Of a DNA stretch of 64,000 nt, positions 24,741 through 45,089 are shown piece after piece. The position numbers and the translations under genes are program-made. The notes beneath the pieces are model-generated. The model did no database searches. It saw nothing but the letters and a program-made list of their open reading frames with translations, and had not been told where the DNA came from. Positions within the stretch are counted from its first letter, which is position 1. Every line of letters begins with the position of its first letter. The DNA is from Planctomycetota bacterium (GTDB lineage: Bacteria; Planctomycetota; UBA8108; SXIK01), in NCBI GenBank assembly GCA_965223845.1, contig CBDCXR010000004.1:4224001-4288000 (forward strand). Reading direction: 5' to 3'.

Positions 24741-27700
24741 TTCCGCCTCTCGACCTCGATCGCCGCCACTGCAGGCGCTGCGACTCGATGCACGAACTGC
24801 ACGTCGAGCCATCCGTCGCGAACTTCGACGTCGAAAACCTGCTGAGTCGCCGTTGCCAAACCCGCGGCGGCCGGCTCGTATTCGTGCAGGACGACGCGAT
24901 CCTCGAGGCGCACGTCGAACGCTCGCTGCGGCTCCGGTGGACTTTCTCCCTCGTCGAAAATCTCGGCGAAGTGAAGCACGACCCGGTAGCGCCCCGCCGG
25001 TAGCGGAATGCGGTAACCCGGTGGAGACAGCGCTTGCGCTGCGAACCAGCGATGGCTCTGATAGAGGAGGTCCTCATCGGTGCCCAACACTTCTCCGGTG
25101 AACGGCCGCTTGACGCCGGTGAGCCCGTACTCGAAGTAGCGACTGCCCGAGGTGAAGAACCCGTCCGAGAGCCACGTTTTTCCATCCGCGCCGACGTGCC
25201 TCTCTCCCCCGCAGTTGACTCGGACCGCTCCGTCCTGAATCAATCGTTCGAGAGCCTCTCGCAGTCTCGCTCCGCGGCCCGTGTCGTCGGTGGTCTCATC
25301 CACGTGCGGAAACGCCGCCAGCGTTTCCTCGGGCGTGCGATCGAGATCGACGAGGCAGACGCGGAGCCAAGCGCTCCAGAGAGAGCTGCTGTCCTCCACG
25401 CCGCTGCCGAGCGCGACGCGGAGTCGCTTCTCCGCGTCCTCGGCCTTCTCGCTCGCGACCAGGCACTCGGCGAGTCGCTCGAAGGGCTCCGGACGTGACG
25501 CTCCTCCTGTCGCGATGCTCTGCGCGAAACGGAGGGCGGCTCGATCGCTCTCACCGGCGAGCTGAAGACTGCGTCCTTCCAAATAGGCGATGCGACTCTC
25601 CATGTGGTCCGTGCCGACCCGCCCGACGATGTCCTTGATGAAGTTGAAGACGCCGGGCTTCCTTCTCGCCTCGAGGGCAGCGTCGATCGAGGCGAACGAT
25701 GCCAGCCCTGACGGGAACCGCTCCCATTGCTCGTCGAGTTCGCGCCGCGTTTTCTCGGTCGCACCGGGCAAGCGTATCGCGCGCTCGAGACACCTGAGCA
25801 CTTGGCCCTCCGCACCGAGCGTCCGGTGAATCTCGGCGAGCGCGACGAGCTCGAACGCCTTGGCCCGATCCTCGAGCGGCTCCGCGCTCAGGTGGCGACG
25901 CAGCTCCTCGAGCTCCTCGCGCACGCTCTCCTCCGGATGCTTCTTCAGCTCTCGGGCCCACGCTCGCAGGCATGAGGAGTAGTGCGCCCGTGTGCGCCAG
26001 TCCTCCGGCAATCGCCGCCAGGTTCGCCGAGCCACGTCGCAATTCCGCCGATGCAGAATCAGGCGCTGCCTCGTGCGTCGAAGGGCTCTATCCTCAGGCG
26101 TGCCGATCCCATAGCGGTCTCGCTCCTCGGACGTGAGCTCGCGCGGCTTGTTGGCCCGCGCGACCGGCAACGGGTCGAGAGGCCACTTCCGAATGTTCCG
26201 GTCTCCCGACAGCGTGTACAGCGACTCGCCGTCAGCGCTGAAAGCGGCGTAGCGGAACTCGCCCTCCGGTGCCTCGATCGTCAATCGCTCCTCGCCGCTC
26301 GTTTCACTCCAGACGCGCGCCGTGCCGTCGCGGGAGAGCGTGACCACGAGCCCCTTCGCGGCGTGCAGGTCCGCATGAGTGACTCGACCCTCGTGCCCGA
26401 CGAGATGCTGGAGCACACTTCCGGTGAGTGCGTCGACGATCGCGGCCGTGTTGTCGTGAGCACCGGTGACGATTTTCCGATCATCGTCGAAGAAGCCGAC
26501 GAAGGTCACCCAGCCTCGATGGTTCGTCCGTGACCAGATCAGCTTGCCCGTAGACGCCTCCCAGAGCTTGACGGTCCAGTCGTGCGAGCCGGTGACGACC
26601 CTCTCGCCGTCGCTGCTGAACGCGGCCTGATTGACGAAGTTCTTGTGGCCGTCACGTCCGCCGAGGACGACGAGGCGCTCGCCGGTCTCCGCGTCCCAGA
26701 TCTGGGCAGAGCCGTCGGCTGCGGATGTCGCGACCCTTTTGCCATCCGAGGAGAACGTTGCGTGAATCACCGCTTCACGGTGACCTCGCAGAATTGCGAT
26801 CGGCCTTCCGCTCGACGCGTCCCAGATTCGCGCGGTCTTGTCATAAGCGGCAGAGGCGATGCGATTCCCATCGGGGCTGAAGCAGGCGAACCAGACGTGA
26901 CCCGCGTGACCCTCGATCCTCAGCATGGGCTCCCCCCCGCCGTCGCGACCGAGCGGCGCCGTCGTCGTTCGCCACACTAAAAGCTGATCTCGTTTCCGCG
27001 ACAGCGCGCGGTCGCGACTGAGTGGAGAACACGGAAGGACTCGACGGATCTCTCGGCTCGAGTCGGGACTCGACCGCACAGACAGCGCCGGAGCCAAGCG
27101 CCAGATCCGCGCCGTTGTGTCCTCCGAAACCGTAGCGAGATGGCGACCGTCCCGACTGAAAGCACATCCCCGGACGTCGCTGTGATGGGCCCGCAATACG
27201 ACGAGCTCCGCACCAGTGTGGGCGTCCCAGATACGTGTGGTTTGGTCTCGCGAAACCGTGACGACGAGTCGATCATCGGGGGCGAATACGGCGGAGACGA
27301 CGGCGGCTCTGTGCCCCGTGAGAGTCCTGACGACTTCGCCGCTGCCGGCGTCTACGAGGTAGACCGAATTGTGAGCACACGCGGCGATGAGACTCCGATC
27401 GTGACTGAATTGAACGAAACGCCACACCCTGTGCTTCGCGGCGTCCCAGAGCACGGCGACTCCGTCTTTCACGACGAGACGGACGGAGCCTTCAACGCCG
27501 ACGTCGAGATCGTAGGAAGCGCCGTGACGCAGGGTGAAACCCTCACCCGGTTCGAGCGTCTCCGGATCCAGGCGCGTGATGCGGTTGTTGTTGTCACTCA
27601 ACCAGAGCTGACCATCGAGCGATGAGAAGTGGATCTCTCGGAGCCGGACCGAGAATGCCCTCCTCCTGAGCTCGCGGCCCGACTCCGTCTCGAAGATGAA

Positions 27701-29683
27701 AACGTTCGTCCAGCCACAGAAGAAGAGGTGTTTTCCGTCCTCGCTGAATAGGACATCGTTAAGCGGGTCATTCGCCACGAATCGAGACAGCTCCTCGCCG
27801 CTGCCGAGATCCCAGATGCGCGCCGTCCCATCGCGACTGGAGGTGACGACTCTCTTTCCGTCCGGACTGAAGTCGGCGCAGTAGGCCCACAGCTCATGGC
27901 CTCGCAGCGTCCTCACCTCGCGTAACTCTGCGAGGCTAGCGAGAAGCGCGTTGTTCGAGGCACGGCCCGGTTCGAGTGCCGCACCCTCGAGAGCGAGCAG
28001 GAGAGCCAGGGTTGGATCCGTCGGGAGCTCCGCGGCCGAGAGCGCCAGGAGGCGGTGCGCCTCGACCTGAACGAGAGCCGCGCTCTTTTCCGCGGATTCC
28101 CGCTCGAGGCGCCCGAGAGCGACCTGCTTCGCGTCGCTTTCGCTCTGCAAACGGCCGAGCGCCGTTTGCTTCGCCTCGCGTTCGTTCTCGACGTGCCGTA
28201 GAAGGACCAGAGACATCACCAGCGCCGCGACCAGCACGACCACGACTCCCGCCACCGAAGCTGCGACGCCGCGATTCCGAGCGACCCACTTCTTGAACTC
28301 GACGACGGCTCCGGTGCGGTAAGCCCGGACAACTCGATTCTCCTGAAACGCCCGCAAGTCTGCCGCCATCTCCGCCATGTCGGCGTATCGGTCGTCCCTC
28401 GATCGCGCCATCGCCCTCTCGCAGATCGCGACAAGCTCGGGCGGGCTGTCTGGTCTCCACCGAGTGAGTTCCTGAGGAGGCCCGCGCCGGACCGCCGACA
28501 AGATTCGGTCAGGAGTCGTCTGCGAACCGGGATCCGTGTACGGCGCGCGGCCGGCTAGGAGCGTGTACAACATCGCGCCGACCGAGTAGACATCCGAGCG
28601 CGCGTCGAGCTGATCGACGCGTCCTTCGGCCTGCTCGGGTGGCATGAACGAGGGGGTTCCGACGATCGTTCCCTCGAGTGTCTGGAGCCGCGAGTCTTCG
28701 CCGTCGGGTCCCCAGCGAAGAGCGGAGGCGGCGTGGCCTCCCTCGGAACTTTCATTTTGCTGCGTGTCGGCAGAATCGAGGGAGCCGTCGTTCTCCAGCA
28801 ACTTCGCGAGCCCCCAGTCCATAACGTAGGTTTCGCCGAAGTTCCCGACCATGACGTTCGAGGGTTTCAAGTCGCGATGGATGACACCCTTGGAATGGGC
28901 ATAAGCCAACGTCTCGCAAACCCGAGCGATCACGTCGAGGACGCGGGCTTCGGTCCAGCCCTCCGCGCCGGCGAGCGCCAAATCGATCACCTTTCCGAGG
29001 TCGCGGCCGTCGACCAGGCGCATCGTGAAGAACAACTTGCCATCGCGGTCGACGCCGACGTCGTGAAGCGGCACGACGCCGGGATGATCAAGCTGCCCCG
29101 TCAGTCGAGCTTCGTGGATGAAACGGCTCAGAAGACGCGCATCGGTGTGAAGGCCATTCCGTCTTGGCGACGCGACATCCGCTTCGCCGCCCTCCGACGA
29201 TGAGTCCTCTCTCGCCCGCACGACCTTCATCGCCAGCTGGCGACGGAGCGCCTGGTCCCAGATACGAAACACGACGCCCATGCCACCGCGACCGACCTCC
29301 TCGCGTCGCACGAAGCGCTCACCGGGAGAAGTCAGGCGCCTCAGAGCTTCGAGCCAGAGGATCGCGGACTCATCGTCGACCGCGTCGGCACCGAGGGACG
29401 CAGGAGCAAGCTCCTCGAGCGCGCGCGCGAGCTCGGGTCGCGCCGCGAGGAGCTCGGCGAGAGGATCGCTACCGTGCTGCGAGGGATGTGGCGGCGCGAC
29501 ATTGGAGACGGCCTCGAGGAACTCCTCTGCCAGCGGATGCGCACCGAGAAGCGACTCGACCTCCGCACGCAGGTCGACGTCTCCTTGACAAGCGTCGGCG
29601 ACAAACGCCGCGCGCTCGTCGGGTTCGAGATCGAGCGCGTCCTCGAAGATCTCGAGAGCGCTGCGCGACCTCTCAGTCGACAC
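24737..29683 (-). CDS. Hanks-type Ser/Thr kinase - TM - coiled coil - WD40 repeats - TPR-like - malectin (1648 aa)
   Basis: GRGGMGVV, HRDLKPSN, DWG and GTPSFMPPE motifs; TM VAASVAGVVVVLVAALVMSLVLL; many GH...FSPDG...WD repeats; C-terminal VRVNCGG...YRVVLHFAEI malectin motifs. Confidence 0.92.
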   Translation of the reverse strand: MSTERSRSALEIFEDALDLEPDERAAFVADACQGDVDLRAEVESLLGAHPLAEEFLEAVSNVAPPHPSQHGSDPLAELLAARPELARALEELAPASLGADAVDDESAILWLEALRRLTSPGERFVRREEVGRGGMGVVFRIWDQALRRQLAMKVVRAREDSSSEGGEADVASPRRNGLHTDARLLSRFIHEARLTGQLDHPGVVPLHDVGVDRDGKLFFTMRLVDGRDLGKVIDLALAGAEGWTEARVLDVIARVCETLAYAHSKGVIHRDLKPSNVMVGNFGETYVMDWGLAKLLENDGSLDSADTQQNESSEGGHAASALRWGPDGEDSRLQTLEGTIVGTPSFMPPEQAEGRVDQLDARSDVYSVGAMLYTLLAGRAPYTDPGSQTTPDRILSAVRRGPPQELTRWRPDSPPELVAICERAMARSRDDRYADMAEMAADLRAFQENRVVRAYRTGAVVEFKKWVARNRGVAASVAGVVVVLVAALVMSLVLLRHVENEREAKQTALGRLQSESDAKQVALGRLERESAEKSAALVQVEAHRLLALSAAELPTDPTLALLLALEGAALEPGRASNNALLASLAELREVRTLRGHELWAYCADFSPDGKRVVTSSRDGTARIWDLGSGEELSRFVANDPLNDVLFSEDGKHLFFCGWTNVFIFETESGRELRRRAFSVRLREIHFSSLDGQLWLSDNNNRITRLDPETLEPGEGFTLRHGASYDLDVGVEGSVRLVVKDGVAVLWDAAKHRVWRFVQFSHDRSLIAACAHNSVYLVDAGSGEVVRTLTGHRAAVVSAVFAPDDRLVVTVSRDQTTRIWDAHTGAELVVLRAHHSDVRGCAFSRDGRHLATVSEDTTARIWRLAPALSVRSSPDSSREIRRVLPCSPLSRDRALSRKRDQLLVWRTTTAPLGRDGGGEPMLRIEGHAGHVWFACFSPDGNRIASAAYDKTARIWDASSGRPIAILRGHREAVIHATFSSDGKRVATSAADGSAQIWDAETGERLVVLGGRDGHKNFVNQAAFSSDGERVVTGSHDWTVKLWEASTGKLIWSRTNHRGWVTFVGFFDDDRKIVTGAHDNTAAIVDALTGSVLQHLVGHEGRVTHADLHAAKGLVVTLSRDGTARVWSETSGEERLTIEAPEGEFRYAAFSADGESLYTLSGDRNIRKWPLDPLPVARANKPRELTSEERDRYGIGTPEDRALRRTRQRLILHRRNCDVARRTWRRLPEDWRTRAHYSSCLRAWARELKKHPEESVREELEELRRHLSAEPLEDRAKAFELVALAEIHRTLGAEGQVLRCLERAIRLPGATEKTRRELDEQWERFPSGLASFASIDAALEARRKPGVFNFIKDIVGRVGTDHMESRIAYLEGRSLQLAGESDRAALRFAQSIATGGASRPEPFERLAECLVASEKAEDAEKRLRVALGSGVEDSSSLWSAWLRVCLVDLDRTPEETLAAFPHVDETTDDTGRGARLREALERLIQDGAVRVNCGGERHVGADGKTWLSDGFFTSGSRYFEYGLTGVKRPFTGEVLGTDEDLLYQSHRWFAAQALSPPGYRIPLPAGRYRVVLHFAEIFDEGESPPEPQRAFDVRLEDRVVLHEYEPAAAGLATATQQVFDVEVRDGWLDVQFVHRVAAPAVAAIEVERRN

Positions 29684-30266
29684 CCGACCGCCCCCCGTTC
29701 AGGTCATTGAATAACCAGGTCTTGGCGACGCTCCATTCACGCTTGACGGTCGCGGGGGATGTATTCAACGCTGTCGCCACATCCTCCACGCTCATCCCCC
29801 CGAAGTAGCGAAGCTCCACAACACGAGCCTTGCGCGGGCCGATCGCCGCGAGTCGCTCGAGAGATTCGTCGAGAGCCAGAAAGTCGATCGTCGGCTCTTC
29901 GTTCACGATGAGCTCCTCGTCGAGAGGGACTCTTCGTCCCGCGCTGCCGCCTCTCTTGAGACGATTCCGCTCGCGAGCGTGATCGATGAGCAGGTTTCGC
30001 ATGGCTTTGGCGACGAAGGCGCGGAACTGCACGCGGTTCTCACCGGGAATCGCGTCACGACGCAAGAGTCTAAGACACACCTCGTTGACGAGTGCGGTCG
30101 CCTGCAGAGTGTGCCCGGGAGTTCTTCTGTCGCTCAGATACGCGCGCGCCAGCTCTCTCAGCTCGTCGTAGATCGACGTGAGAAGCCGATCCCGCGCAGA
30201 AGAGTCGCCGCGACGGGCGAGTTCGAGCAGTGCCGTGATTTGTGAGGCCGAGGAGAAGTCGTCCAT
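29673..30266 (-). CDS. ECF sigma factor, TIGR02999 (planctomycete kinase-associated) type
   Basis: QITALL, IYDELRELA, HTLQATALVNE, RLKRGG and VVELRYFGG motifs; stop overlaps the kinase start. Confidence 0.9.
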   Translation of the reverse strand: MDDFSSASQITALLELARRGDSSARDRLLTSIYDELRELARAYLSDRRTPGHTLQATALVNEVCLRLLRRDAIPGENRVQFRAFVAKAMRNLLIDHARERNRLKRGGSAGRRVPLDEELIVNEEPTIDFLALDESLERLAAIGPRKARVVELRYFGGMSVEDVATALNTSPATVKREWSVAKTWLFNDLNGGRSGVD

Positions 30267-30591
30267 GCCGCAGGCAACGCGCGCCCAGCCGGGAGGCCGC
30301 CTCAAGCCCGAGAGCTTGAGAACGGTCCACGGCGCTTCTGCGGACCCGAGACCGACGAACGTCGCACGGCGACGAAACCCGCCTGTATCGATGCTCCGCT
30401 GCGGCTCGGACGAAGTCAATGTCTCTCTCGACGTCTGCTCGTCGTTGCGCGATTCGAAATGCCCGTGCCCTCGAGCCGGATTCGCCTACGACGACCAGGT
30501 CTACGACGACCAGAGCATTCGGAGTCGACTCGATCCTATTTGTGCGACTCCTTAGCCCTGGTCGTCGATCGCTACTCCTGGGTACCAGACG

Positions 30592-31239
30592 TCAGTTATC
30601 CGCGGGAACGATTACGGAGTTCACCACGTTCCGGTAGAACCCGGTCTCGGCTTCGTGGTCGATCTCCGAGAGATCGACGTTGAGATCGACATCGAGGTCA
30701 ATACCCAACAGATGTCCCGAGGCTACCGCCTCCCGAGAGCGTACGGTGGAGACATTGCTAGTCAGTTGGTCGGGAGGATCCGACGGCGCCCAGGCTTCGG
30801 TTCGAACCGTGACCGGCCCGTCACCCTCGACAACCAGGTCGGACAAGATCGCCGTCTTAAACAGGAGCTCGCCCGTCGTGGGATCGAACTCGGGGAATAG
30901 TACCTCGACTTCTCCCGGTATGAACACAAGGGAGTCTGTCGCGATGTAGCTTTCCCGATCTAAGAGCAGTGCAAATCCGAAGCCGAAGAACCCCGTCTCA
31001 AAGTCCATGATTTCGACCTGAAGGAATCCGGCGATGAATGTCTCCCCGGTGATGAAGTTGTACACTTCAGTTTCGTCGAAGAACAGTCTCAGGCCATCGG
31101 CCTGAACCTGGGCGTACGCCGAAGAGGACCTGAACTTGAAGACGGTGGCGCCCTCGTCGGGCGCGGAGTGGGAGACCCCAAGCGGGAGTGCTAGCGACAG
31201 GACCGCAGCCAGTGAGTAGATCCATCGTCGTCGTGTCAT
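30592..31239 (-). CDS. Secreted acidic hypothetical protein
   Basis: AAGGAG RBS, signal peptide, beta-rich composition. Confidence 0.75.
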   Translation of the reverse strand: MTRRRWIYSLAAVLSLALPLGVSHSAPDEGATVFKFRSSSAYAQVQADGLRLFFDETEVYNFITGETFIAGFLQVEIMDFETGFFGFGFALLLDRESYIATDSLVFIPGEVEVLFPEFDPTTGELLFKTAILSDLVVEGDGPVTVRTEAWAPSDPPDQLTSNVSTVRSREAVASGHLLGIDLDVDLNVDLSEIDHEAETGFYRNVVNSVIVPADN

Positions 31240-31852
31240 GGTGTTGCTCCTTTTCCATGATCTGAACGGAATGAGACAGTGGGTTTTCCAAACTCCCGAC
31301 AGAGAGTGGGCAGCCGCCCTTCGCGCGGGTGGACCGTTGTGACTGTGGAAACCAAAACCCTAATCCCGCCGCCCGAACCACCGTGATCGCGCGTATGTCG
31401 AGGCGTGTCCTGGCATACGGGAACTCGACGGCCTTCGGATTCTGGCGCACCCGGCCCGTTCACAGGGGGGAAACGACAACTGCGGGGGGACGAGCTCAGT
31501 TTTTTCTGCCGCAGGCTCAGAACCCGGACTGGAGCCGACGCGTGCAGGTCACGGTGCTGCGCGTCGCGGTATTCCATGGCTTGCGTCGCTACTACGACCG
31601 CGAAGCCGCGGAGCCGAACACCTCGCAACCTCTTCCCGCCCTCCCGGACTCGATACCGCCCACGAACCGACTGGCTTCCTTCGTCGACGAGCTGCTCGAC
31701 CCACCCCGACAGTCCTTCGACGTCTGAGCTCGTCGACCGCGTTCAAAACAGCCAGACGAGAAGACTCCGGCGTTCGACGAGAACTTGGCTGCGGCGCGAA
31801 CTCAAAACAGGGCGGGCTTGACCCGCCTCGCTCGACGAGCGAGAATGCGAGC

Positions 31853-32278
31853 ATGGCTGCGCTGTTTTTCTCGACCAAGCCTCAGTCGCAACACTCGCGA
31901 TACCGTCTGATCGCGCTGGTATCCGCTCTCGCGATCTTGGGGCAGGCTGTCTTGCCGCTTCTGCACGAAGTGACGGCGCACAGCCATGTCGAATCGGCGC
32001 TGGCTCACTCGCACGACTGGCCTTGCACTTCTTCCGAATCTCTGACGGAGTCCGTATCGCTTGCGGACACCCCGCCGTCCGAGACACGGATGGAATCCGA
32101 CTGTCAGATTTGCCTGGCGCTCAGCACAGTCCGCCACTCCATTGTTGCTCCGAGTGGCTCGCGAACCCACACCCCCCTCGCCTCTATCTCCGCAAGGAGA
32201 TTGATCACGTCACCAGACCTCTGGGTCTGCAGCTCGATCGATCTAAACCTTGCGGCGCCTCGGGCCCCTCCAGCCTGA
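31853..32278 (+). CDS. DUF2946-like leader protein (signal/TM, His-rich, CxxC, C-terminal RAPP)
   Basis: Hydrophobic N-terminus, LHEVTAHSH...HSH, DCQIC, ends AAPRAPPA-stop: the CruR/CutF architecture. Confidence 0.8.
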   Translation: MAALFFSTKPQSQHSRYRLIALVSALAILGQAVLPLLHEVTAHSHVESALAHSHDWPCTSSESLTESVSLADTPPSETRMESDCQICLALSTVRHSIVAPSGSRTHTPLASISARRLITSPDLWVCSSIDLNLAAPRAPPA

Positions 32279-32387
32279 ATCTGATCGCTTGTAGTTGAGC
32301 TCGACTCGCTGACCGAGCGCGGTTTGCCCGCGTGTCGACGGCGCGAGTTGAAAGCGCATGCGTTCAAGATTCACTGGAGACTTCAAA

Positions 32388-33002
32388 ATGCCCTCGATTC
32401 GCGAACAGCGGACGACGGTGCCATCGCGAGGCACGTCGAGCCGTTCCAGCGGACGGATCCGCGACGACCTAGTCTCGCGAGCCGTACGTGACCACCTAGA
32501 CGTAATGCTCGCAGCCGCACGACGCGTACTTCCTAGCGATGATCTTGCCTGGGACGCAGTGCAAGAATCCCTCCAAGCGCTCTGGAAGGAAGGAGCCATC
32601 AACACGCCTCTACGCGGTTGGCTGCTCCGAGCGGTTCGCCTCCGCGCTTTCCATTTGCTTCGGTCCGAGCGACGACGTCGCCAGCACGAAGCCGCGTGCG
32701 CCTGCCTTTGCTGCCTGGTCGCCTACGATGATCCGGCTCGTCGAATGGAGAACCGCGAGCTTTTGAATCTGGCGGTGAAGGCTATCGAACGATTGCCCCC
32801 AGCATATCGCAGTGTCGTCGAAATGCGTGACTGGCTCGACATGGACTACGCGTCCATTGCATTAGAGCTTGGCGTTCCCGTCGGTACGATCCGCTCGAGA
32901 CTCAGCCGCGCCCGTGATCAGGTGCGCGCGGCACTCCGCCCGGCACTTCGACAAGGCCGGCGTTCGGGCGCAGGAGGGAGACCGGTCGCATGTCTGGCGT
33001 GA
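32388..33002 (+). CDS. ECF sigma-70 factor with a Cys-rich sigma2-sigma4 linker
   Basis: GGAG RBS; AWDAVQESL...LRGWLLRAV (sigma2), HEAACACLCC linker, YASIALELGVPVGTIRSRLSRAR (sigma4). Confidence 0.88.
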   Translation: MPSIREQRTTVPSRGTSSRSSGRIRDDLVSRAVRDHLDVMLAAARRVLPSDDLAWDAVQESLQALWKEGAINTPLRGWLLRAVRLRAFHLLRSERRRRQHEAACACLCCLVAYDDPARRMENRELLNLAVKAIERLPPAYRSVVEMRDWLDMDYASIALELGVPVGTIRSRLSRARDQVRAALRPALRQGRRSGAGGRPVACLA

Positions 33003-35047
33003 AGAAGCTCACCGGAGATGCGCTTGCTACCGGAGTCGCTCTCCTCGTCGCATCGATCTTCCCAGCTCCTTTGCAGGCGCAGGATCCGGGTCAAAGCGTC
33101 GCGAGGTCACTCATCCGCGGCACCTACGAACGAGTTTTTTTTCCCGAAGACGTCACCCGAATCGCGGTAGGTGACAAAGGCCTCCTGTCGTTCGAGCTGT
33201 TGAACACGCGTGAAGCTCTTGTTCTCGGTAAGGGTGTCGGACGAACGAACGTAGTCGTGTGGTACTCGAGCGGCGCGATCTCCGATCATCGATTCTCCAT
33301 CGAAGAAGATCTTTCCGTCTTGAAAGAGGCCTTGCGTGATCTCGACCCTCGGATCGCTGCGGAAATGGCCTCCAATCGTGCCGCAATCGTACTGCGCGGG
33401 GTTGTGCCCAATGCGATCGTCATGGAGCGTGCCGTTCGGGTCGCGGAGGACTACTTGGGCTCACGCTCGGGACGCACCCGCCGTCGAGGGCGCGGCGCGG
33501 GCACGACGGGCCCGGAGGACCTGGCTCAATCGCTGCGACTCATGGCCGATGCGATCGAGACGACCGATCGGCCTGCGGGAGAAACAGAGACCGTCGTAGC
33601 ATCGTCCACTCCCTCGCCGACGGCATCGGGAACTGTAATCAACCTGCTTCGAGTGGAACAGCCCCCAGAGACGACCGAAGAAAAAATACTCCGTGCGATT
33701 CAGCCTATCGCAGGTTCCGACGTCGCCGTCCGACGAGTCCTGAAAGGGGCGGTACCCGACGATGAGCGCGACGTGTTCGTGCTCGAGGGAAAAGTCGCCA
33801 ACCAGGTCGCGCTCGTACGCGTCTTGTCACTCGCAGCGAGAATCATCACCGGAAGATCTCTCCGCGGAGTGCGCGGCGAAAGCCTCATTCGGGTTCTCGC
33901 CGAGGAAGGCGGCGGCCTTTTCGAGGGAGGCGGACAGTCCGGCCAGGGCAATCGAAACCGCCAGAACTCTGGCGGTGCTGGACGAGGTGGTTCGGGATCC
34001 GGAAGGAGTGCTAGTTTTTTTCAGAGCGATATCGAGACGAATATCGCGCGCGCCAAGGCGCTCGATGTCGCCGACGGGCGCATCCTCTCTTTCCTAGAGG
34101 TTTCCGATCTCCCGCTCGTCCGGGTCAATGTTCAGTTCTACGAGGTAAATCGAGCAGAGATCCTCAACTATTCGTCGGACTGGGCCGCGTTCGTCTCGAG
34201 TTTCGAACAACCTGCGCTGTTAGGAGCTGGGTTGGCACCGGGATTTCAGTCGGCGCCGGCGAGTGTGGGGACCTTTGCCGCTACGGATATCCAGAATGTG
34301 CTCTCCTCGATCGGCGGCAACCTCGGCAATCAGTTCCAATTAGTCGACGACCATCTCGCGGTCGATACGGCGTTTTCTCTGCTTGAAGCGAAGGGTCTGG
34401 CACGACGGCTCTCCGCTCCGTCATTGACGGTACTCTCCGGTGAGCAAGCCGCGCTCTCCGTAGGAGGTGAAATTCCGATCCAGGAGATCTTTTCACCGGC
34501 TTTCAGCGGTGATGATTCCCCGGGCGTGTTCGGCTCTGTGCGCTTTCGGAGTTTCGGGATCTCACTCAATATGAGACCCCAGATCGACGAACGGGACATG
34601 ATCACGCTGGAGCTCGCTCCTACCGTGAGTCAACCGGATCAGCAGCTGACTTCGGTGCTTGTTGATACGACTGGAGCCGAGCAACCGACGACCGCCTTTC
34701 AGAGTCGATCGATGGTTACGAGCAGTCGGTTGAGAGACGGGCAGTCCCTGATGCTCGGCGGACTCGTATCGCGAGGCGACGCGCGTGACATTTCCCAGCC
34801 GCCTTTGATCGGTGATATCCCGCTTCTGGGCTGGTTGTTTCGCAACTTCGGCGAAACCGACGACGACCGCGAGCTGGTGATCCTCGTCAACCCGACGATC
34901 GTCAGAGAACCTATCCCCGAAATCGGCCTCTGGTCGTTTGCGAAACCGAGCGAACTTCTCGAATCAGCCGGACTTCGAAGACCCAGAGCCGACGGCGATC
35001 CGTCGGAATCGCCGCCGCACCTCGCTAAAGATCGGAGCGGGTCGTGA
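32990..35047 (+). CDS. cpaC: Tad pilus secretin RcpA/CpaC
   Basis: Signal peptide; N-terminal pilus-formation domain (RIAVGD...GKGVGRTNVVVW); secretin motifs LTVLSGEQAALSVGGEIP, GDIPLLGWLFR and ELVILVNPTIV. Confidence 0.9.
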   Translation: MSGVKKLTGDALATGVALLVASIFPAPLQAQDPGQSVARSLIRGTYERVFFPEDVTRIAVGDKGLLSFELLNTREALVLGKGVGRTNVVVWYSSGAISDHRFSIEEDLSVLKEALRDLDPRIAAEMASNRAAIVLRGVVPNAIVMERAVRVAEDYLGSRSGRTRRRGRGAGTTGPEDLAQSLRLMADAIETTDRPAGETETVVASSTPSPTASGTVINLLRVEQPPETTEEKILRAIQPIAGSDVAVRRVLKGAVPDDERDVFVLEGKVANQVALVRVLSLAARIITGRSLRGVRGESLIRVLAEEGGGLFEGGGQSGQGNRNRQNSGGAGRGGSGSGRSASFFQSDIETNIARAKALDVADGRILSFLEVSDLPLVRVNVQFYEVNRAEILNYSSDWAAFVSSFEQPALLGAGLAPGFQSAPASVGTFAATDIQNVLSSIGGNLGNQFQLVDDHLAVDTAFSLLEAKGLARRLSAPSLTVLSGEQAALSVGGEIPIQEIFSPAFSGDDSPGVFGSVRFRSFGISLNMRPQIDERDMITLELAPTVSQPDQQLTSVLVDTTGAEQPTTAFQSRSMVTSSRLRDGQSLMLGGLVSRGDARDISQPPLIGDIPLLGWLFRNFGETDDDRELVILVNPTIVREPIPEIGLWSFAKPSELLESAGLRRPRADGDPSESPPHLAKDRSGS

Positions 35048-36057
35048 TCCAGCTTCACCGTCGCGGCGCGCGAGAGTCGGGGGCCGCGCTGATCGAGTTT
35101 GCGATCGTCTCTCTCGCTCTGTACCTAATCCTCGCTGCGATCCTTACCTTCGGCTCGGCGATCTGGATCGGCCAGAATCTGCAGCAGGCCGTCGATGTCG
35201 GAGCGCAGGAGCTGGCACGGCTGCCGCTTGATCCGGACATCGATCTGGGCTGGGGCGATCTCCAGCAGGGCTGTGCTGCCCCGGAGGATGTGGAGGACTT
35301 CGCAGCGTGCGACGGTCGCGTCCTGGACGAGATCTACGACAAACAGTACCTCGTCATAACTCGCCAAGATATCTCGAATTCGAATATCGATCCCGACTCC
35401 CCCACCGCGCTTCTCGAGTACGCCGAGACGCTGCCGTTGATCAATCGATTGCTGATCCCGGTAATGATTTTCGATCGCCAGCATAGCGGCGGATCCTGGC
35501 GCTATCCCGGAGCCGTAGTGTTGAATACCGTGACGCCAGAGCCCGAAGAAACCGTGCTCGTTCCGATCGTCAGGAATGGCGAAATCCGTTGGGTCGCGCC
35601 AGTGGAAGAAGTTCGAGTCGATCACGACGGAGATTCGGCTACAGCTCCGGTCGGGCCCTTTTCGGTGCTCCCCCCGGAACCGACTCCTCCTGGCTTCGTC
35701 CCCGGAGTGGTGGCCCTTCGGATCAACTACCCATTCCAAAGCGCGGCGATGTCCGATTTCACGCCGAGCCCGGAAGGTGCCCTCGAGCCGAACCTCGATC
35801 GTGTCGTAACTGCGGACGACGCGTCGCTGACCGCGGGTGCAACAGGAGTCTACGCGCTTCAGGTCGCCGCGAACTCCTACGCGGACGGTGAGCCGAACAT
35901 CCACGGAGGTCGCTATGGTCTTGGCCGCCAGATCGCATTGCCATTCGATCGAGACTCGATTCGCACGTTTGGAGTTCGACCCTACCGGCGGATCCTGTCC
36001 GTGCAGGCGATCTACCGCCGCGAGGTCTTCGATTTCGGCCTCGGATCCACACCATGA
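35044..36057 (+). CDS. tadE: TadE-like pseudopilin, long form
   Basis: ESG/AALIEFAIV prepilin motif plus hydrophobic helix; GTGA overlap with cpaC. Confidence 0.85.
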   Translation: MIQLHRRGARESGAALIEFAIVSLALYLILAAILTFGSAIWIGQNLQQAVDVGAQELARLPLDPDIDLGWGDLQQGCAAPEDVEDFAACDGRVLDEIYDKQYLVITRQDISNSNIDPDSPTALLEYAETLPLINRLLIPVMIFDRQHSGGSWRYPGAVVLNTVTPEPEETVLVPIVRNGEIRWVAPVEEVRVDHDGDSATAPVGPFSVLPPEPTPPGFVPGVVALRINYPFQSAAMSDFTPSPEGALEPNLDRVVTADDASLTAGATGVYALQVAANSYADGEPNIHGGRYGLGRQIALPFDRDSIRTFGVRPYRRILSVQAIYRREVFDFGLGSTP

Positions 36058-37316
36058 TTTCGCTACCGAAACCACTGCGCAGCCGAGAGGCCGGATCCGT
36101 ACTCGCGCTCTTCGCGATTCTTCTCTTCGGGCTCGTTGCGCTCCTGGCTTTGTCTATCGATACCGGATTCGTGCTACTGGCTCGCCGTCAGATGCAAGCG
36201 GCCGTCAACTCCGCCTCGGTCGAGGGTCTGCGCTGGCGCGATCGACTACCGCCTGTCGACGACTTGGTCGCTATCGGTGAGGATCCGAGTAACCCGGCAG
36301 AGCTCGAAACTCGAAAGGACGAGATTCGCCGCAAAATGGCGAGGCAATTCGTCCACGCCAGCTTCGATGTCGACTACGACGTAGGAAGCCCCGATCCGTC
36401 GACGGCCGTTCTCGGGGCCGGCCCGATGATCGGATTCGAAGGCGGGATCGATATCGGTGGCGGACTCAGAGCTTCCAGCTTGATTCGCCAACAGAATCCG
36501 AGGGCGTACAAACCAGCTCTCGCGCTGAATCTCGGTAATTCTGTCTCCGGAGACATGGTTTCCGGCGGCTATCTGGTGGACGGTTCGCGCGACGATTATG
36601 AGGACTTCCTCGACGTGAACGATCCGCCGGATGCCTTTCTCGTACGCCTCCGGCGGACAGACGAAGATCTTTCCTCGGCTCCGGACGCCAGCACGTCGGG
36701 TCCACCGATCCCCTCCCTATTCGGCAGGGCGGCCATCGCGCGCGCCGAGGAAGGCAATCCCCAGGCGCTACTTCAGCGTCGCGCGACTGGGGTTCGCGTT
36801 CGGGCGACGTCCATTGCCGATCTGAAACCCGCGGTCTCCGTCGGGTATTCATCGAACACGGACCGACCTGGAGTTCGCTACTTTGTCGACCGCTCGGTCT
36901 TCGACTGTTCCAATCCGACGATTCTCATCGACGAACTGGAGGTACCCCTCGATCCTCTGGGGCCACCCGTGCTCCCCTGTCCGTCGGGAGCGGGAGGAGC
37001 CGTCGTCCTTGGTGACTCGGTGGCGTCCCTCGTCCCTGCGGCACCTCCACTCCCTTCGGAGTCGTTCGTGGTGGCCATCTACGATTCGAGTGTTTGCCCG
37101 GCGGCGGCGGCAGATGTTGTCGTAGGCTTCGCGAACGTCAGAATCATCGACCAATCTGTCGTCCCCGCCGGCGATCTGGTCCTTGCGAACGGCTCCAGCA
37201 CCTTCGTTCGAAACTGCCAGCTCTCCGCGGACTGTTTCGACTCCTTGATCACGAACTGCTTTCAGCTCCAGGGGGCTGCGGTCAGAGCCCCAGCACGGGT
37301 GAGAGCAACTCGTTGA
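36054..37316 (+). CDS. tadG: TadG-like pilus-associated protein
   Basis: EAGSVLALFA...ALSIDTG...RRQMQAAVNSAS Tad N-terminus; six C-terminal Cys; ATGA overlap. Confidence 0.8.
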   Translation: MISLPKPLRSREAGSVLALFAILLFGLVALLALSIDTGFVLLARRQMQAAVNSASVEGLRWRDRLPPVDDLVAIGEDPSNPAELETRKDEIRRKMARQFVHASFDVDYDVGSPDPSTAVLGAGPMIGFEGGIDIGGGLRASSLIRQQNPRAYKPALALNLGNSVSGDMVSGGYLVDGSRDDYEDFLDVNDPPDAFLVRLRRTDEDLSSAPDASTSGPPIPSLFGRAAIARAEEGNPQALLQRRATGVRVRATSIADLKPAVSVGYSSNTDRPGVRYFVDRSVFDCSNPTILIDELEVPLDPLGPPVLPCPSGAGGAVVLGDSVASLVPAAPPLPSESFVVAIYDSSVCPAAAADVVVGFANVRIIDQSVVPAGDLVLANGSSTFVRNCQLSADCFDSLITNCFQLQGAAVRAPARVRATR

Positions 37317-37382
37317 CGGAGACGTTGGTCTTTTTGTCGAGTCCTTGGGAACTAGAGACGGTCCGGCGGCACTTCGACGCTG

Positions 37383-37904
37383 ATGACCAGCCCGTTTCTC
37401 GTTGACCGCTCGTTTAGTCGCCGACTCGACCGTGTCGGCATCGTCGTCTCGCTCGCCTGCGCGGCTCACTTCATTTCCGCGCCGGTGCTCCTGCTTGCCG
37501 CGCCCCTACTCGGCGGCCTGTGGGTGCACCCGGCTTCGCATGCGGTAATCGCTGCGTTCGCTCTGCCAGTGGCGGCGTTCTCACTACGGCGGGGATACGC
37601 CGTGCACGGCCGACGGTGGATCGCAGCAGCAGGCGCGCTCGGCGTCGCGTGCGTCGTACTCGGTGTGTTGTTGCCCGTGGCGACTGCGGCCGAACGACCG
37701 CCGGACGAAACGAATTTGAGCCGGTGCACGGATTGCTGCCCATCGATAGACATCGGGGCGGGGGCTGATTCCTGGTCACTTCGCATCCCTCCGGCGAGTT
37801 TCGTCAGCTTGATCGGTGGGATCGCCTTGGTCGCCGCGCACTTCGGGAATCTCCGTTGCTGCCGGAACTGCGGAAAAGCACGTGAGCGATCGTGTGAGCA
37901 GTGA
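37383..37904 (+). CDS. MerC-domain membrane protein with extra Cys clusters
   Basis: LDRVGIVVSLACAAH, GYAVHGRR and LVAAHFGNLR match the MerC-domain pattern; additional CTDCCP and CCRNC. Confidence 0.8.
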   Translation: MTSPFLVDRSFSRRLDRVGIVVSLACAAHFISAPVLLLAAPLLGGLWVHPASHAVIAAFALPVAAFSLRRGYAVHGRRWIAAAGALGVACVVLGVLLPVATAAERPPDETNLSRCTDCCPSIDIGAGADSWSLRIPPASFVSLIGGIALVAAHFGNLRCCRNCGKARERSCEQ

Positions 37905-38131
37905 CATCCGTGGGCGCGACAGCGCAGCTTTCGGCCGAGCGGGTCCGTTGGTGAGAGATTCGGTCCCCACCCGCGAGCAGGGTACAGAGGTTTCGACAGC
38001 ACGACGGAAGACTCAAAGAAGGAGAGTCTCGGAAATACCGGGAACTTCCTTCCGGCGAGCGGCACATCACACTCGAAAGGAGTGAAGTGCTCCTAGCCCC
38101 GTCACAACGATCCACAAGGAGGTTTCAAGAC

Positions 38132-38494
38132 ATGCGACAGAACATCCAACAAAGGAGGCGCGGAGCTGCAATGATCGAGTACGCCCTGCTCGTCGCGGGC
38201 GTCGTCCTCGTGGCCGCCGCTGCCACGGCAGTCTTCGGGCACAAGACGAACGACTTGATCTCTGGCGTAGCCGCTGTCCTTCCGGGTGCTCACGCAGACG
38301 ACAACGCCCCGATCGTCAGCGGCAAAATCATCGAGACGGCGCCCCAGGACCACGACGGGGACGCTGGAACGCCTGACGCCATCGCGCTCGATATCGACAC
38401 AATCGTTACCAACTCCGACGGCACGGTCGAGCGTCTCGGGAACCGCCTAGGTACGGCATCGAGCATCACGCAGCTGATCGTCGAGGCCGAATAG
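38132..38494 (+). CDS. flp: Flp (type IVb) pilin with a long C-terminal extension
   Basis: AAGGAGG RBS; RRG/AAMIEYALL Flp motif; hydrophobic helix. Confidence 0.9.
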   Translation: MRQNIQQRRRGAAMIEYALLVAGVVLVAAAATAVFGHKTNDLISGVAAVLPGAHADDNAPIVSGKIIETAPQDHDGDAGTPDAIALDIDTIVTNSDGTVERLGNRLGTASSITQLIVEAE

Positions 38495-38595
38495 CCCCGC
38501 GGCGACCAGTCTTAGACTCGAATTCGAAACGCTCAAGGAGTTGCCCTCAGCCCAGGGCGACTCCTTGGGCATTGTTTGCATCTCGGAGAAAGCAC

Positions 38596-39747
38596 ATGGC
38601 AAGACCGCGCAGAAGCTCGACTCCCTGGGTCGTCGTGACTCTTCTCTTGATCGGCGTGTACGGGCTCGCGGTCTACCTTCAGGTCGAGGGCTATCTGCGA
38701 TTGCCGTTCGAGCTGCCGCTCGTTTCCCAATTTCAGAGGGCTACTTCCGAGGGAGCGGTCGACGCACAGTCGAACGCGCGTGGAAAAATCGCGGTGCCGA
38801 TGTCTGCAGCAGATATTCCTGCCTACACAAAGCTTCGCCGAGAGCACATGTGGGATTCCAAGCGGGGCAGGTTTACCACCATTCTGTTGGACGAAGACGA
38901 CGTCCCGGCGGCCGTACTCCGAGATTTTTCCGAGATCGTGGGGCGTGTTCTCGACCATGACAAACCAGCAGGCTACGTGTTCACCGAGGACGATTTCTAT
39001 CCGAAGGGAACGCGAGAAGGGCTGGTCGCAGGGATCCCGCCGAACAAGATGATGTTGTTGGTCGAGGCGAACAAGGTGAAGGGGCTCTTCGGACTCAGGC
39101 CGGGAGATCGGTTCGACATAGTCCGCACGATCCCCGTCGATTCGAAGGGCGGCGCGGTGTCCCGAGAGACTGCCGGGCCCTACGGGGATCAGATCTCGCT
39201 CGCCATGAAGTTGTCCAACTGGGACAAGCAGGCTGAGGTCCGCGTTGTGGTTCGAGACGGCGTAGTGGTGACTCCGGTGAAGACGAGAGCCAAGCCGACC
39301 TCGAGTCAGAGCCTCACCAGAGGAGCCGTTGCCCGTTCCGTGCCGATCCAAGAGATTTATATCGCGGTTGCTCCCGAGGAAGCGGCGCCGTTGAGCGAGG
39401 CAATGGCGGTTGGTGCCGACGTGAGAGCGGTGATTCGATCGGGTCATGCTACCGTGCCTGCGAACATAGGCGTCTCGGATCTTCAACCACGCAATCCTCT
39501 CAACGACCTGATGTCGGCTTTGATCCCCGCCGACACGGCGTCTTCGAACGGGACGTTTAGGCCAGCGGTCGCAGGTTCGTTCCGACTCGTCGAACGCGTA
39601 GAAGACGGCCGACGTCAGCTCGTGACCGTTCCCGGTTTCGTAGATCGTCAGAACCAGGAACGGTGGGACGGCCAGATTCGCGTCGTCCCTGCTGCGGGTT
39701 CGCTCGACACCACGGAAAGCGGAACGCAAGGTGAGCGGGACGAGTAG
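38596..39747 (+). CDS. cpaB: CpaB/RcpC-like pilus assembly protein (SAF domain)
   Basis: N-terminal TM; DIPAYTKL SAF-like motif, LRPGDRFDI and IAVAPEEA motifs; operon position. Confidence 0.8.
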   Translation: MARPRRSSTPWVVVTLLLIGVYGLAVYLQVEGYLRLPFELPLVSQFQRATSEGAVDAQSNARGKIAVPMSAADIPAYTKLRREHMWDSKRGRFTTILLDEDDVPAAVLRDFSEIVGRVLDHDKPAGYVFTEDDFYPKGTREGLVAGIPPNKMMLLVEANKVKGLFGLRPGDRFDIVRTIPVDSKGGAVSRETAGPYGDQISLAMKLSNWDKQAEVRVVVRDGVVVTPVKTRAKPTSSQSLTRGAVARSVPIQEIYIAVAPEEAAPLSEAMAVGADVRAVIRSGHATVPANIGVSDLQPRNPLNDLMSALIPADTASSNGTFRPAVAGSFRLVERVEDGRRQLVTVPGFVDRQNQERWDGQIRVVPAAGSLDTTESGTQGERDE

Positions 39748-39756
39748 GAATCGCCG

Positions 39757-41052
39757 ATGCAGATTCTGTTGGTTAGCTCTGATCCATCGCTCCGCGAGGA
39801 ATTCGAGGCCGCACTCGAAAACCTAAAGGAATTCAGTCCCTCCGTCCTCACGGCCGACAGCCCACGACAGGGGGTCGAGGTCGCACGGATTCGACGCCCA
39901 AACCTCGTCCTCATCGAAATGGACGCGAACGGAGGACGGCTCGACCGGTTCGCGTCGGAAATCTCGGCCCACGCACCTCGCACTCTCATCGGCGCGGTGT
40001 ATCGCGCAGACGTGCTCGGGTCAGGAAGCTCGGAAACCGCAATCATCTCGGGCGTTCGAGCCGGCGTGAGCGACTTTCTTCGCCGCCCTCTTTCCAGTGT
40101 GGAAATCGAGCAGTTGCTCATTCGCGCGCGGCACCGAAACGCGCGCCAGGCCCCGGTCGCCCGAGGCCTCATCGTGTCGGTTTCCAGCACGAAAGGAGGG
40201 GTTGGAAAGTCGACGCTCGCAGTCAACAGTGCATGCCTTCTCGCGCGCCGCGCGCCCGGGCGAGTGCTGCTTGTCGATGCATCCCTTCAGCTCGGCGTGT
40301 GCGCACGAATGCTCGACCTCGAAACGAAGACGACCATCACCGACGCGACGCAGGAACTCGATCGGCTGGATCCCACGCTACTGCGTGAGTTGGCGCTCCA
40401 CCACGACAGCGGGCTGCATCTCCTTGCGGCGCCCAAGGATCCAGTCGGCTCGACGGAGGTGAACGACGAGGCTATCGCCCGTGTCTTGGCGACTGCGCGT
40501 CAAGCCTACGAGTATGTCGTGGTCGACACCTTCCCACTTCTGGAATCGGTGGTGCTTGCCGTGCTCGATCTCAGCGACCTCGCCTACCTCGTCTTTCAAG
40601 GCACGGTTCCCTGCGTCCTTGGCCATGTCGGATATCTTCGGGCGCTTGAGAACGTCGGAATTGATGTGAATCGACAACGTCTCGTGTTGAGTCGAAACCA
40701 CGCGCGGTTTTCTGGTGATCTGTCGCTCAGCGATATCGTCCGCAAACTCGGTCGCGACATCGATCACGTCATTCCGTACCAACGGCGCATACTGAGCTCC
40801 ATGAACACTGGTGAACCCTACGTGCTGCGACACCGAGGATTATTCGGGTTCGGACGCGCAGTGCGGAATCTTGTTCACGAAATTGTTCAGGAGCGGGAGG
40901 CTCAAAGCATTAACGGAGATCAGAAGAACGCGCACTCATCCGAATCCTCCCCCGCGGATCACGCCGAAGGAGATTCTGTCCGAGTGCGTGAACCAGATTT
41001 CAGAGCTCCACAGCAGCAGGGTTCGACTCGCTCATCGGAGGTTAATCAATGA
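39757..41052 (+). CDS. cpaE: CpaE/TadZ receiver-like plus ParA/MinD ATPase
   Basis: N-terminal receiver-like domain; KGGVGKST deviant Walker A; SGLHLLAAP. Confidence 0.9.
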   Translation: MQILLVSSDPSLREEFEAALENLKEFSPSVLTADSPRQGVEVARIRRPNLVLIEMDANGGRLDRFASEISAHAPRTLIGAVYRADVLGSGSSETAIISGVRAGVSDFLRRPLSSVEIEQLLIRARHRNARQAPVARGLIVSVSSTKGGVGKSTLAVNSACLLARRAPGRVLLVDASLQLGVCARMLDLETKTTITDATQELDRLDPTLLRELALHHDSGLHLLAAPKDPVGSTEVNDEAIARVLATARQAYEYVVVDTFPLLESVVLAVLDLSDLAYLVFQGTVPCVLGHVGYLRALENVGIDVNRQRLVLSRNHARFSGDLSLSDIVRKLGRDIDHVIPYQRRILSSMNTGEPYVLRHRGLFGFGRAVRNLVHEIVQEREAQSINGDQKNAHSSESSPADHAEGDSVRVREPDFRAPQQQGSTRSSEVNQ

Positions 41053-43339: not shown

Positions 43340-43353
43340 CAGGAAACGCTCTT

Positions 43354-44271: not shown

Positions 44272-44282
44272 GCGGGGAACGA

Positions 44283-44975: not shown

Positions 44976-45089
44976 GCGCATCGACACAAGTAGATCGGCG
45001 GGCCATAGGTCGCGAACACTCGTCCGCATCGTGCCCAAGGATTCATACGAGTCCGTGCCCTCTAAGCGGGATTGCTCTCAGGGCAGCTC

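Follow-up and report, generated by a model that had tools for sequence, protein, structure and literature searches.

What controls an orphan extracytoplasmic function (ECF) sigma factor whose gene directly follows a small open reading frame (ORF) with a ribosome-arrest motif at its end? The question is raised by a locus in 64,000 nucleotides (nt) of DNA from Planctomycetota bacterium (assembly GCA_965223845.1, contig CBDCXR010000004.1, positions 4,224,001 to 4,288,000), hereafter called the window, where a 141-residue leader ORF ending in Arg-Ala-Pro-Pro (RAPP) precedes an ECF sigma gene. The pairing of the two genes is real. The placing of a DUF2946-like leader over an orphan planctomycete ECF sigma factor, and of a second leader class, named here xSPP after its terminal motif, in the same slot of related loci, is apparently undescribed.

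The leader and its two classes

The preliminary description of the window had read from the letters an ORF of 141 codons with a signal or transmembrane (TM) segment, HxH clusters, a CxxC pair and a PRAPPA terminus, and all of these were recovered.

31853-32278, + strand: putative metal-sensing arrest leader, 141 residues, divergent DUF2946/CruR-like (ORF and homologs; PF11162 16.1 bits)
31907-31963, + strand: hydrophobic signal/TM segment, residues 19-37 (hydropathy only; also in both protein homologs)
31979-32014, + strand: His cluster H43xH45...H52xH54 (H43, H52 and H54 invariant in 3/3 close homologs)
32102-32113, + strand: CxxC (C84-Q-I-C87), 49 residues ahead of the RAPP Arg (C84 and C87 invariant in 26/26 aligned leaders)
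32261-32272, + strand: RAPP codons, predicted arrest site (R137, P139 and P140 invariant in 26/26 aligned leaders)

Within 40 codons of the hydrophobic stretch, the top 19-residue stretch of the protein (mean Kyte-Doolittle 2.36), ATG 31853 is the sole start in frame. In two database homologs (69% and 53% identity) the start lies at or close to this position, and both cysteines and the last 12 residues, DLNLAAPRAPPA, are retained. The protein terminates in APRAPPA, with RAPP at residues 137-140 followed by a single Ala, and its cysteines are residues 58, 84, 87 and 126.

Since a direct search with the leader sequence gave just 2 homologs among 77 candidates, the leader family was reached through homologs of the sigma factor. 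Scanning a genome collection with the sigma sequence yielded 219 relatives, and the best 80 loci, nearly all from Planctomycetota, were analysed. From these loci and 19 kb of the window (1.03 Mb), 12,033 stop-to-stop ORFs on both strands were passed through a RAPP-class filter, consisting of a hydrophobic segment, a CxxC and a C-terminal R[AGSD]P[PG]. Only 28 ORFs passed, and 27 of them (26 loci and the window) lie immediately 5' of the sigma gene and share its strand, with one elsewhere. A leader profile revealed the second class, for which the filter [AS]Pxx[SAG]PP retrieved 27 ORFs, all immediately 5' of the sigma gene, 24 of them in new loci. Both filters together thus gave one match away from the sigma slot in 1.03 Mb, and the leader is immediately upstream of the sigma gene in 50/80 loci, 26 of R[AG]PP type (CxxC-(43-48 residues)-R[AG]PP) and 24 of xSPP type.

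In the RAPP class, the terminal motifs (25 RAPP and 2 RGPP) stand 1-14 residues from the stop, and the expectation that the motif be kept in homologs was borne out. The second Cys-to-Arg spacing is 45 in 17/27 leaders and 43-45 in 25/27; it is 48 in the closest relative of the window, L001, and 49 in the window. Little beyond the TM segment, the cysteines and the terminal motif is conserved (mean column identity 27%). Planctomycetota proteomes show strong avoidance of RAPP, with a mean bias of 0.19 (PMC12992588 supplement; here and below, published work is cited from the accessible portions of the papers).

A hidden Markov model search against PF11162, proposed earlier as a check on the family assignment, gave a divided answer: the window leader scored 16.1 bits (profile positions 2-117), below the gathering cut-off of 23.7, and PF11162 was the top match for 19/26 of its RAPP-class positional equivalents, above the cut-off in 4/26. 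In the Atlas clusters nearest to the leader, 13-15% of members carry PF11162. The features that mark DUF2946/CruR leaders, namely the N-terminal hydrophobic segment, the conserved CxxC and the C-terminal RAPP, are all present; the leader is the first gene of an operon with a long gap, and its link to metal is indirect, via the predicted sigma regulon. It probably works like a DUF2946 leader, as a divergent member, though its PF11162 score and its spacing fall outside the limits of that family.

The xSPP leaders (24 loci, L004-L078; e.g. L024:7441-7851 and L045:7391-7801) have a TM segment, are rich in His, contain one Cys and end in LAP[KGH][HQNR]SPP, with invariant His, the single Cys and AP..SPP. 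That Cys lies 47-50 residues ahead of the motif in 24/24, matching the first Cys of the RAPP-class CxxC, and the profile-profile alignment of the two classes (probability 87%, E 4e-6) runs up to it. Matches to PF11162 were weak and confined to 4/24, and no Pfam model reached its cut-off among 38 sequences of the family scanned. The xSPP profile reaches 3,779 clusters (50% identity) at E 0.001 or better; in the best 150, which were selected by the profile and include training sequences, 148 terminate in xSPP, and in 124 a Cys precedes the motif by 48 or 49 residues. No description of the motif was found in the accessible literature. The variants given for monitoring substrates in the accessible text of PMC10987492 are HAPP, QAPP, HGPP, RSPP and TGPP, and HSPP, QSPP and NSPP are not among them. 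As the Arg of RAPP is reported to be irreplaceable in ApcA, ApdA and ApdP, the His, Gln or Asn found there in 23/24 xSPP leaders offers a natural test of arrest chemistry.

One further locus, L032, has a decayed leader that ends in RASS, and 29/80 loci are leaderless; L060 has just 169 nt upstream, and L076, L077 and L080 are distant outgroups. On a quick sigma tree with many open forks, the leader labels need 13 changes and leaderless loci are nested within leader-bearing clades, a pattern in which repeated leader loss is likely. Seven leaderless loci of one clade (L039, L051, L054, L062, L065, L066 and L069) have an ArsR/SmtB metalloregulator gene beside the sigma gene; counted as one event, this suggests that a metalloregulator replaced the leader. 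A SlyD-like peptidyl-prolyl isomerase is often encoded there too. The L048 locus, from a contig bearing the label Luminiphilus, is of typical planctomycete type and branches within Planctomycetota in the tree, which may reflect a binning error.

The sigma gene and the RNA in front of it

32268-32292, + strand: anti-Shine-Dalgarno arm, CTCCAG in the Pro-Pro-Ala codons, stop codon and start of the gap (pairs with 32356-32379)
32298-32351, + strand: apical hairpin holding the stems of the preliminary description (predicted fold; L001 columns not kept)
32374-32379, + strand: sigma Shine-Dalgarno (SD) sequence CTGGAG, 8 nt before the ATG (identical in L001)
32388-33002, + strand: ECF sigma factor, 204 residues, planctomycete subfamily, signature [DE][DH]LAxDAVQE (Pfam r2 and r4_2)
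32685-32714, + strand: Cys-rich sigma2-sigma4 linker HEAACACLCC (at least 2 Cys in the linker window in 54/81 sequences)

The sigma protein scores above the TIGR02937 cut-off and contains sigma2 and sigma4 domains only; no NCBIfam ECF subfamily matched it above cut-off. Its alignment comprised 58 of 82 database homologs. The start at ATG 32388 agrees with a 204-residue database entry, with 204-residue relatives aligned from M1 and with a GGAG SD sequence. An alternative ATG at 32358 was rejected on its SD score (-2.5 vs -6.4 for 32388) and on homolog lengths, and the gap of 109 nt between leader stop and sigma ATG given in the preliminary description is thereby upheld. At least 2 linker Cys occur in 20/27 RAPP, 12/24 SPP, 22/29 leaderless and 0/1 degenerate loci, and the linker is a possible second metal-binding or sensor layer. 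In 10/24 xSPP-class sigma factors (e.g. L005, L025 and L045) a CxxC C-terminal tail resembles the sensory tail of CorE; it is absent in the RAPP class. No recurrent anti-sigma neighbour was seen, and a ZAS-type anti-sigma factor (HxxxCxxC) was rejected, with 0/81 loci having one within 500 nt downstream of the sigma gene.

In the minimum-energy fold, CTCCAG (32268-32273) pairs with the SD sequence CTGGAG (32374-32379) at the base of a long helix that carries the apical hairpin at its tip, and the SD helix of the window has pairing probabilities of 0.98-1.0. The preliminary description had pointed to a possible hairpin within the gap (32301-32309 with 32343-32351, around an inner CGCGG/CCGCG stem). 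Both stems can form. The inner one has a probability of about 0.99; for the outer one the value is only about 0.3 in free RNA, rising to about 0.9 with a stalled ribosome in the model. This hairpin was rejected as the switch, as it leaves the SD sequence untouched and neither stem is kept by column in L001. The likely regulatory helix is the enclosing one, in which the RAPP Pro-Pro codons are paired with the sigma SD sequence.

Because these codons are themselves the anti-SD sequence, an arrested ribosome would unmask the SD sequence. By analogy with the toeprints of CruR, ApdA and ApdP (PMC12992588), the ribosome is predicted to stop with Pro139 in the P site and Pro140 in the A site. With a ribosome footprint modelled there, the cost of opening positions -15 to +3 drops from 10.8-11.2 to 2.4-5.0 kcal/mol in four folding windows. 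In L001, 11 pairs of the SD helix recur column for column, 10 of them without change and 1 by compensation, although the central part of the gap has diverged; the covariation analysis was limited to these 2 sequences. In 21 RAPP loci including the window, the distance from the P-site codon to the sigma ATG is tight (interquartile range 116-126 nt, compared with 80-98 nt from stop to ATG), in keeping with a geometry that the arrest site determines. A known riboswitch or cis-acting RNA family was rejected, as no Rfam match up to E 1 was obtained in 31200-32600.

Promoters and predicted targets

31818-31846, + strand: TTGACC-17-GAGAAT, sigma-70-type promoter with its end 6 nt upstream of the leader ATG (no other promoter-like site in 31200-33100)
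32990-37316, + strand: Tad secretin (13-nt overlap with the sigma stop), TadE-like and TadG-like proteins (ORFs, domain scan)
37348-37372, + strand: GGAACT-N13-CGGCAC, predicted sigma target promoter 10 nt upstream of the merC-like ATG (motif scan)
37383-37904, + strand: MerC-domain membrane protein (PF03203 69 bits)
38041-38065, + strand: GGAACT-N13-CGGCAC ahead of the Flp pilin gene, second predicted sigma target promoter (motif also precedes Flp in 13 related loci)
38132-44975, + strand: Flp pilin, CpaB, CpaE, CpaF ATPase, TadB, TadC and TPR protein (Flp and CpaB matches below curated cut-offs)

The position of the sigma-70-type promoter suggests that the leader mRNA is itself leaderless or nearly so. 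The same promoter geometry precedes the leader in 17/50 leader loci, compared with 0.81 expected (19/665 called genes). An independent promoter ahead of the sigma gene, which would have told against a leader-dependent sigma, was absent: neither a promoter nor an intrinsic terminator was found on the + strand of the window gap, and the strict promoter motif occurred in 0/45 leader-sigma gaps. The same promoter type stands right before the sigma gene in 5/30 loci without a scored leader versus 2/51 with one. A 7-bp inverted repeat at 31811-31827, which scores as a minus-strand terminator, overlaps the leader promoter at its -35 element; it could be an operator or a stop for antisense transcription.

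A bipartite motif, GGAACY-N13-SGGCA, was found in 50/80 loci. Spacing 13 accounts for 70 sites, and any other spacing between 8 and 25 for 2-12; the window has 2 sites versus a mean of 0.205 in 200 shuffles. The GGAAC element is an ECF-like promoter consensus. From this element and from co-location, we infer that the sigma factor reads the motif. The nearest gene 3' of a site encodes an outer-membrane protein at the head of a ZnuABC-type operon in 19 cases (one site intragenic), Flp pilin in 13, an unannotated secreted family in 6 and the leader or sigma factor in 4, with no gene within the locus in 8. In L054, a MerC gene follows the same motif. Autoregulation was rejected for the window, where no such motif precedes the leader; a site in this position was flagged in 6 related loci, and L009 has one further upstream. 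The claim that the leader gates the whole operon directly was not upheld: the merC-like gene and flp-cpaBEF-tadBC have ECF-type motifs of their own, so the circuit would be feed-forward and the leader's gate on them not direct.

The zinc-type targets of relatives contain ZnuA (PF01297) and an ABC-3 permease, with AztC as best NCBIfam match, and the Atlas look-alikes of the receptor bear the automatic name 'Zinc-regulated TonB-dependent outer membrane receptor'. Several target-family scores fall below curated cut-offs, among them those of a ZigA-like GTPase (552 bits, cut-off 600) and of a protein like all3515, a Zur-repressed family (62 bits, cut-off 75). Metal-related genes lie within 8 kb in 16/26 RAPP, 3/24 xSPP and 16/29 leaderless loci, and Tad genes in 4, 6 and 12 of them, respectively, by our own heuristic gene calls.

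The proposed circuit, its rivals and known systems

Conservation, position, spacing, predicted folds and motif enrichment were computed; stalling, the direction of control, the metal and the link between sigma factor and motif are what we infer from them. The best model, to which we give slightly better than even chances, predicts that metal scarcity leads to arrest, arrest to translation of the sigma factor, and the sigma factor to a zinc-starvation-like regulon that includes Tad pili. A housekeeping-type promoter would drive a single mRNA starting at or near the leader ATG, and residues 19-37 would target the nascent leader to the membrane. Judging by geometry, the His/Cys region would emerge when about 45-50 residues separate it from the ribosome active site. 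With metal scarce, the ribosome would stay arrested on the RAPP Pro-Pro codons and keep the sigma ribosome-binding site open, allowing translation of the sigma factor and the coupled secretin-TadE-TadG genes. Metal bound by the nascent CxxC/His region would release the arrest, the hairpin would re-form and sigma synthesis would end. The sigma factor would transcribe from GGAACY-N13-SGGCA promoters the merC-like gene and flp-cpaBEF-tadBC in the window and, in relatives, genes for the zinc-type outer-membrane receptor and ZnuABC-type transporter, the ZigA-like GTPase and the all3515-like protein. The leader would then take the place of an anti-sigma factor or metalloregulator. As the predicted targets are starvation-type genes, arrest should signal metal scarcity, as in CruR. 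In our estimate the sensed metal is zinc with about even likelihood; copper, and equally nickel or cobalt, are unlikely, and any other metal more so.

Several results weigh against this model. The PF11162 score of the window leader lies below the cut-off, as given above. Its spacing of 49 (48 in L001) lies beyond the tolerance of CruR, in which the CxxC-RAPP distance is 45, changes of +/-2 are tolerated and control by copper is largely lost at +5 (PMC9426467), close to the window value. In the RNA model, a terminating ribosome frees the SD sequence as well as a stalled one does, and for this reason the dwell time of the ribosome would matter. The stability of the 171-nt region is ordinary (z -1.53, 15/200 shuffles equal), and after synonymous randomisation equally strong pairing arose in 7/120 cases for the window, which is borderline, and in 24/120 for L001, which is negative. 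Across the family, SD unmasking is weak: a gain of at least 3 kcal/mol was obtained in 8/44 leader loci compared with 6/60 control gene pairs (drawn from 91; 6 leader loci with gaps above 330 nt were skipped), with median gains of 0.9 and 0.0 (p 0.035). Likewise weak, at least 5 pairs between the arrest region and positions -30 to -1 were present in 13/44 leader loci and 10/91 controls (p 0.012). In both statistics the loci are not independent and the starts were chosen by rule; a hairpin conserved throughout the family was rejected on these figures. The target motif was first seen by eye in these very upstream regions of recurrent neighbours, and 19/29 leaderless loci keep it. The window targets, MerC-like and Tad, are not clear zinc-uptake genes. 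Finally, in 13/80 loci the gene called next after the sigma gene encodes a permease similar to SO_0444 (210 bits, cut-off 300), annotated for copper/zinc efflux, which would fit the opposite sign of control.

That opposite sign, in which binding of metal in the periplasm would induce arrest and the sigma factor would be made under metal excess, is unlikely in our judgement, though it has several points in its favour. MerC and ArsR/SmtB proteins are often tied to metal excess, and the permease just mentioned points the same way. CutF shares SD unmasking and an essential signal peptide with the window (PMC9973294; preprint 10.1101/2025.02.05.636593), and the sigma linker, rich in Cys, is reminiscent of CorE, which is activated by metal (PMC8999054). 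However, the predicted sigma targets are mostly uptake and starvation genes, the ECF motif is not listed before the SO_0444-like gene, and CutF stalls on PPP in an EF-P-sensitive manner, whereas RAPP arrest is described as intrinsic and refractory to EF-P (PMC12992588; preprint 10.1101/2025.02.05.636593). Arrest could also govern Rho-dependent termination in the gap, exactly as CruR operates (PMC9426467), with the hairpin incidental. The 3' half of the leader has a C>G bubble (C 0.40-0.44, G 0.19-0.21 in windows starting at 32109-32161), the gaps are long and SD pairing is weak across the family. Yet the C>G skew is no stronger than expected from the encoded amino acids (0.22 in the window vs 0.18 coding expectation, with 1/51 loci at p <=0.05), and the SD helix is retained in L001. 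Rho as the sole device is improbable by our reckoning, and Rho termination and SD unmasking could coexist.

We hold it to be quite improbable that the leader monitors secretion or membrane insertion, like SecM, ApdA or MifM, or periplasmic redox, its His and Cys residues being structural. A hydrophobic N-terminus followed by RAPP is indeed the plan of monitoring substrates (PMC10987492), the output includes an envelope machine (the pilus/secretin operon), and a CxxC can form disulfides (preprint 10.1101/2025.02.05.636593). This reading is opposed by the fixed Cys-to-arrest spacing equal to that of CruR, by the His-rich periplasmic part, by the zinc-type targets and by the count of sec or yidC families, which was 0 among 45 neighbour proteins scanned. 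An ordinary small exported metal-binding protein, or an anti-sigma factor co-transcribed with the sigma gene, its RAPP causing no stalling, is very improbable in our judgement: nearly only the TM segment, the Cys residues and the terminal motif are conserved, and RAPP is avoided in Planctomycetota proteomes to the degree given above (PMC12992588). An anti-sigma role is further opposed by a His/Cys part predicted to be extracytoplasmic and by a cytoplasmic N-terminus of fewer than 20 residues, which would be too short for a usual anti-sigma domain.

The nearest known system is CruR (Bordetella pertussis BP2923, DUF2946/PF11162; PMC9426467), likewise a first gene of about 140 residues with an export signal, a CxxC, a C-terminal RAPP and a long gap; its spacing is that of most relatives of the window leader, the window itself having 49. 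A CruR-like window leader would turn on the downstream genes by arrest under metal scarcity. CruR precedes a TonB transporter, whereas the window leader precedes an ECF sigma factor with a regulon, and the accessible neighbour text and supplements of that paper name no sigma-factor neighbours of CruR-type leaders. The output of CruR is Rho termination and that of the window looks translational; the CruR mRNA has a 45-nt 5' region, whereas that of the window is probably leaderless; and CruR senses copper, whereas the window context points to zinc. CutF of Rhodobacter capsulatus (PMC9973294; preprint 10.1101/2025.02.05.636593) is a DUF2946-like exported leader whose stalled ribosome melts an SD-hiding stem; a stem of this kind within reach of a stalled ribosome is predicted in the window and L001 and is weak across the family. 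CutF differs in having CxxxC and a PPP motif that depends on EF-P, and in stalling with copper excess to express a detoxifying oxidase (PMC9973294); the window has CxxC, RAPP, an anti-SD sequence inside the arrest codons and starvation-type targets.

RAPP leaders ahead of ECF sigma genes have been reported before. SLIV_33595 and SLIV_33605 of Streptomyces lividans are RAPP-type arrest peptides upstream of ECF sigma genes, and their arrest was shown in vitro and in B. subtilis (PMC12992588). They are not of the CxxC/DUF2946 type: they have four predicted TM segments, no metal motif in the description available, and belong to another phylum and architecture. ApdA, ApdP, SecM and RQH (PMC10987492) share with the window a localisation signal, a RAPP-like motif at the C-terminus and an SD-hiding stem opened by the stall; unlike the window leader, they control sec/yidC genes and are described without conserved metal ligands. 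On the sigma side, CorE and CorE2 of Myxococcus xanthus (former ECF44/ECF238; PMC8999054, PMC7826278) also have no anti-sigma factor, linker Cys and a metal-related regulon, and the accessible parts of these papers describe no arrest leader for them. CorE needs a Cys-rich C-terminal domain (PMC8999054); the window sigma has the linker CxC and one tail Cys, and at least 2 tail Cys occur in 0/27 RAPP-class sigma factors. A DUF2946 gene that stands before the gene of a GntR regulator, and a second one that comes first in the Zur-linked czr operon, have also been described (PMC4176598).

In the accessible literature there was no account of a CruR-type leader with a sigma factor, or of an ECF sigma factor combined with zinc starvation and ribosome stalling. 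Arrest-leader control is not among the modes given in the accessible text of an ECF review and classification (PMC8999054, PMC7826278), and the descriptions of planctomycete ECF groups, as far as available, do not mention such a leader (PMC7826278 supplement). CruR and CutF each control one operon; the same device atop a transcription factor would control a regulon. An orphan planctomycete ECF subfamily would be assigned a regulon together with its signal and target promoter, and Tad pili would be linked to metal limitation. In its fullest form, which we put forward tentatively as somewhat less probable than not, the proposal is of a planctomycete zinc-starvation response run by a nascent-peptide sensor. 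DUF2946-like arrest would be the master switch of an ECF sigma factor lacking an anti-sigma factor, the regulon would comprise ZnuABC-type uptake, a COG0523 chaperone and a metal-scavenging Tad pilus/secretin, and half of the leaders would use an Arg-less xSPP motif, equally far from the sensing Cys.

Some further features of these loci were recorded. At L050:6380-6772 (- strand) a second RAPP/CxxC leader heads a divergent MoxR-type operon and has its own ECF-type motif upstream. A His-rich repeat protein with weak similarity to Zur-repressed all3515 lies under an ECF motif at L001:3679-5538 (- strand), and a related dockerin-containing protein is encoded at L001:5832-6737 (+ strand). The SO_0444-like permease of L070:8718-10664 and 15 other loci is about 640 residues long; its C-terminal part is of SO_0444/DUF318 type, and its N-terminal membrane part is unannotated. 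By eye, these genes usually have a TAnnnT-like element of their own, a few bases upstream of the start. No prepilin peptidase was present among the scanned ORFs of the window Tad cluster (32990-44975), and a Peptidase_A24 gene stands by the pilin gene in 15 related loci. Short ORF stretches at 24680-25003 and 45031-45573, which resemble integrase-core remnants, flank the region. At 24737-30419 (- strand) a TIGR02999-type ECF sigma factor adjoins a 1648-residue Ser/Thr kinase with WD40-like repeats, the kinase being read from the translation, an arrangement ordinary in planctomycetes.

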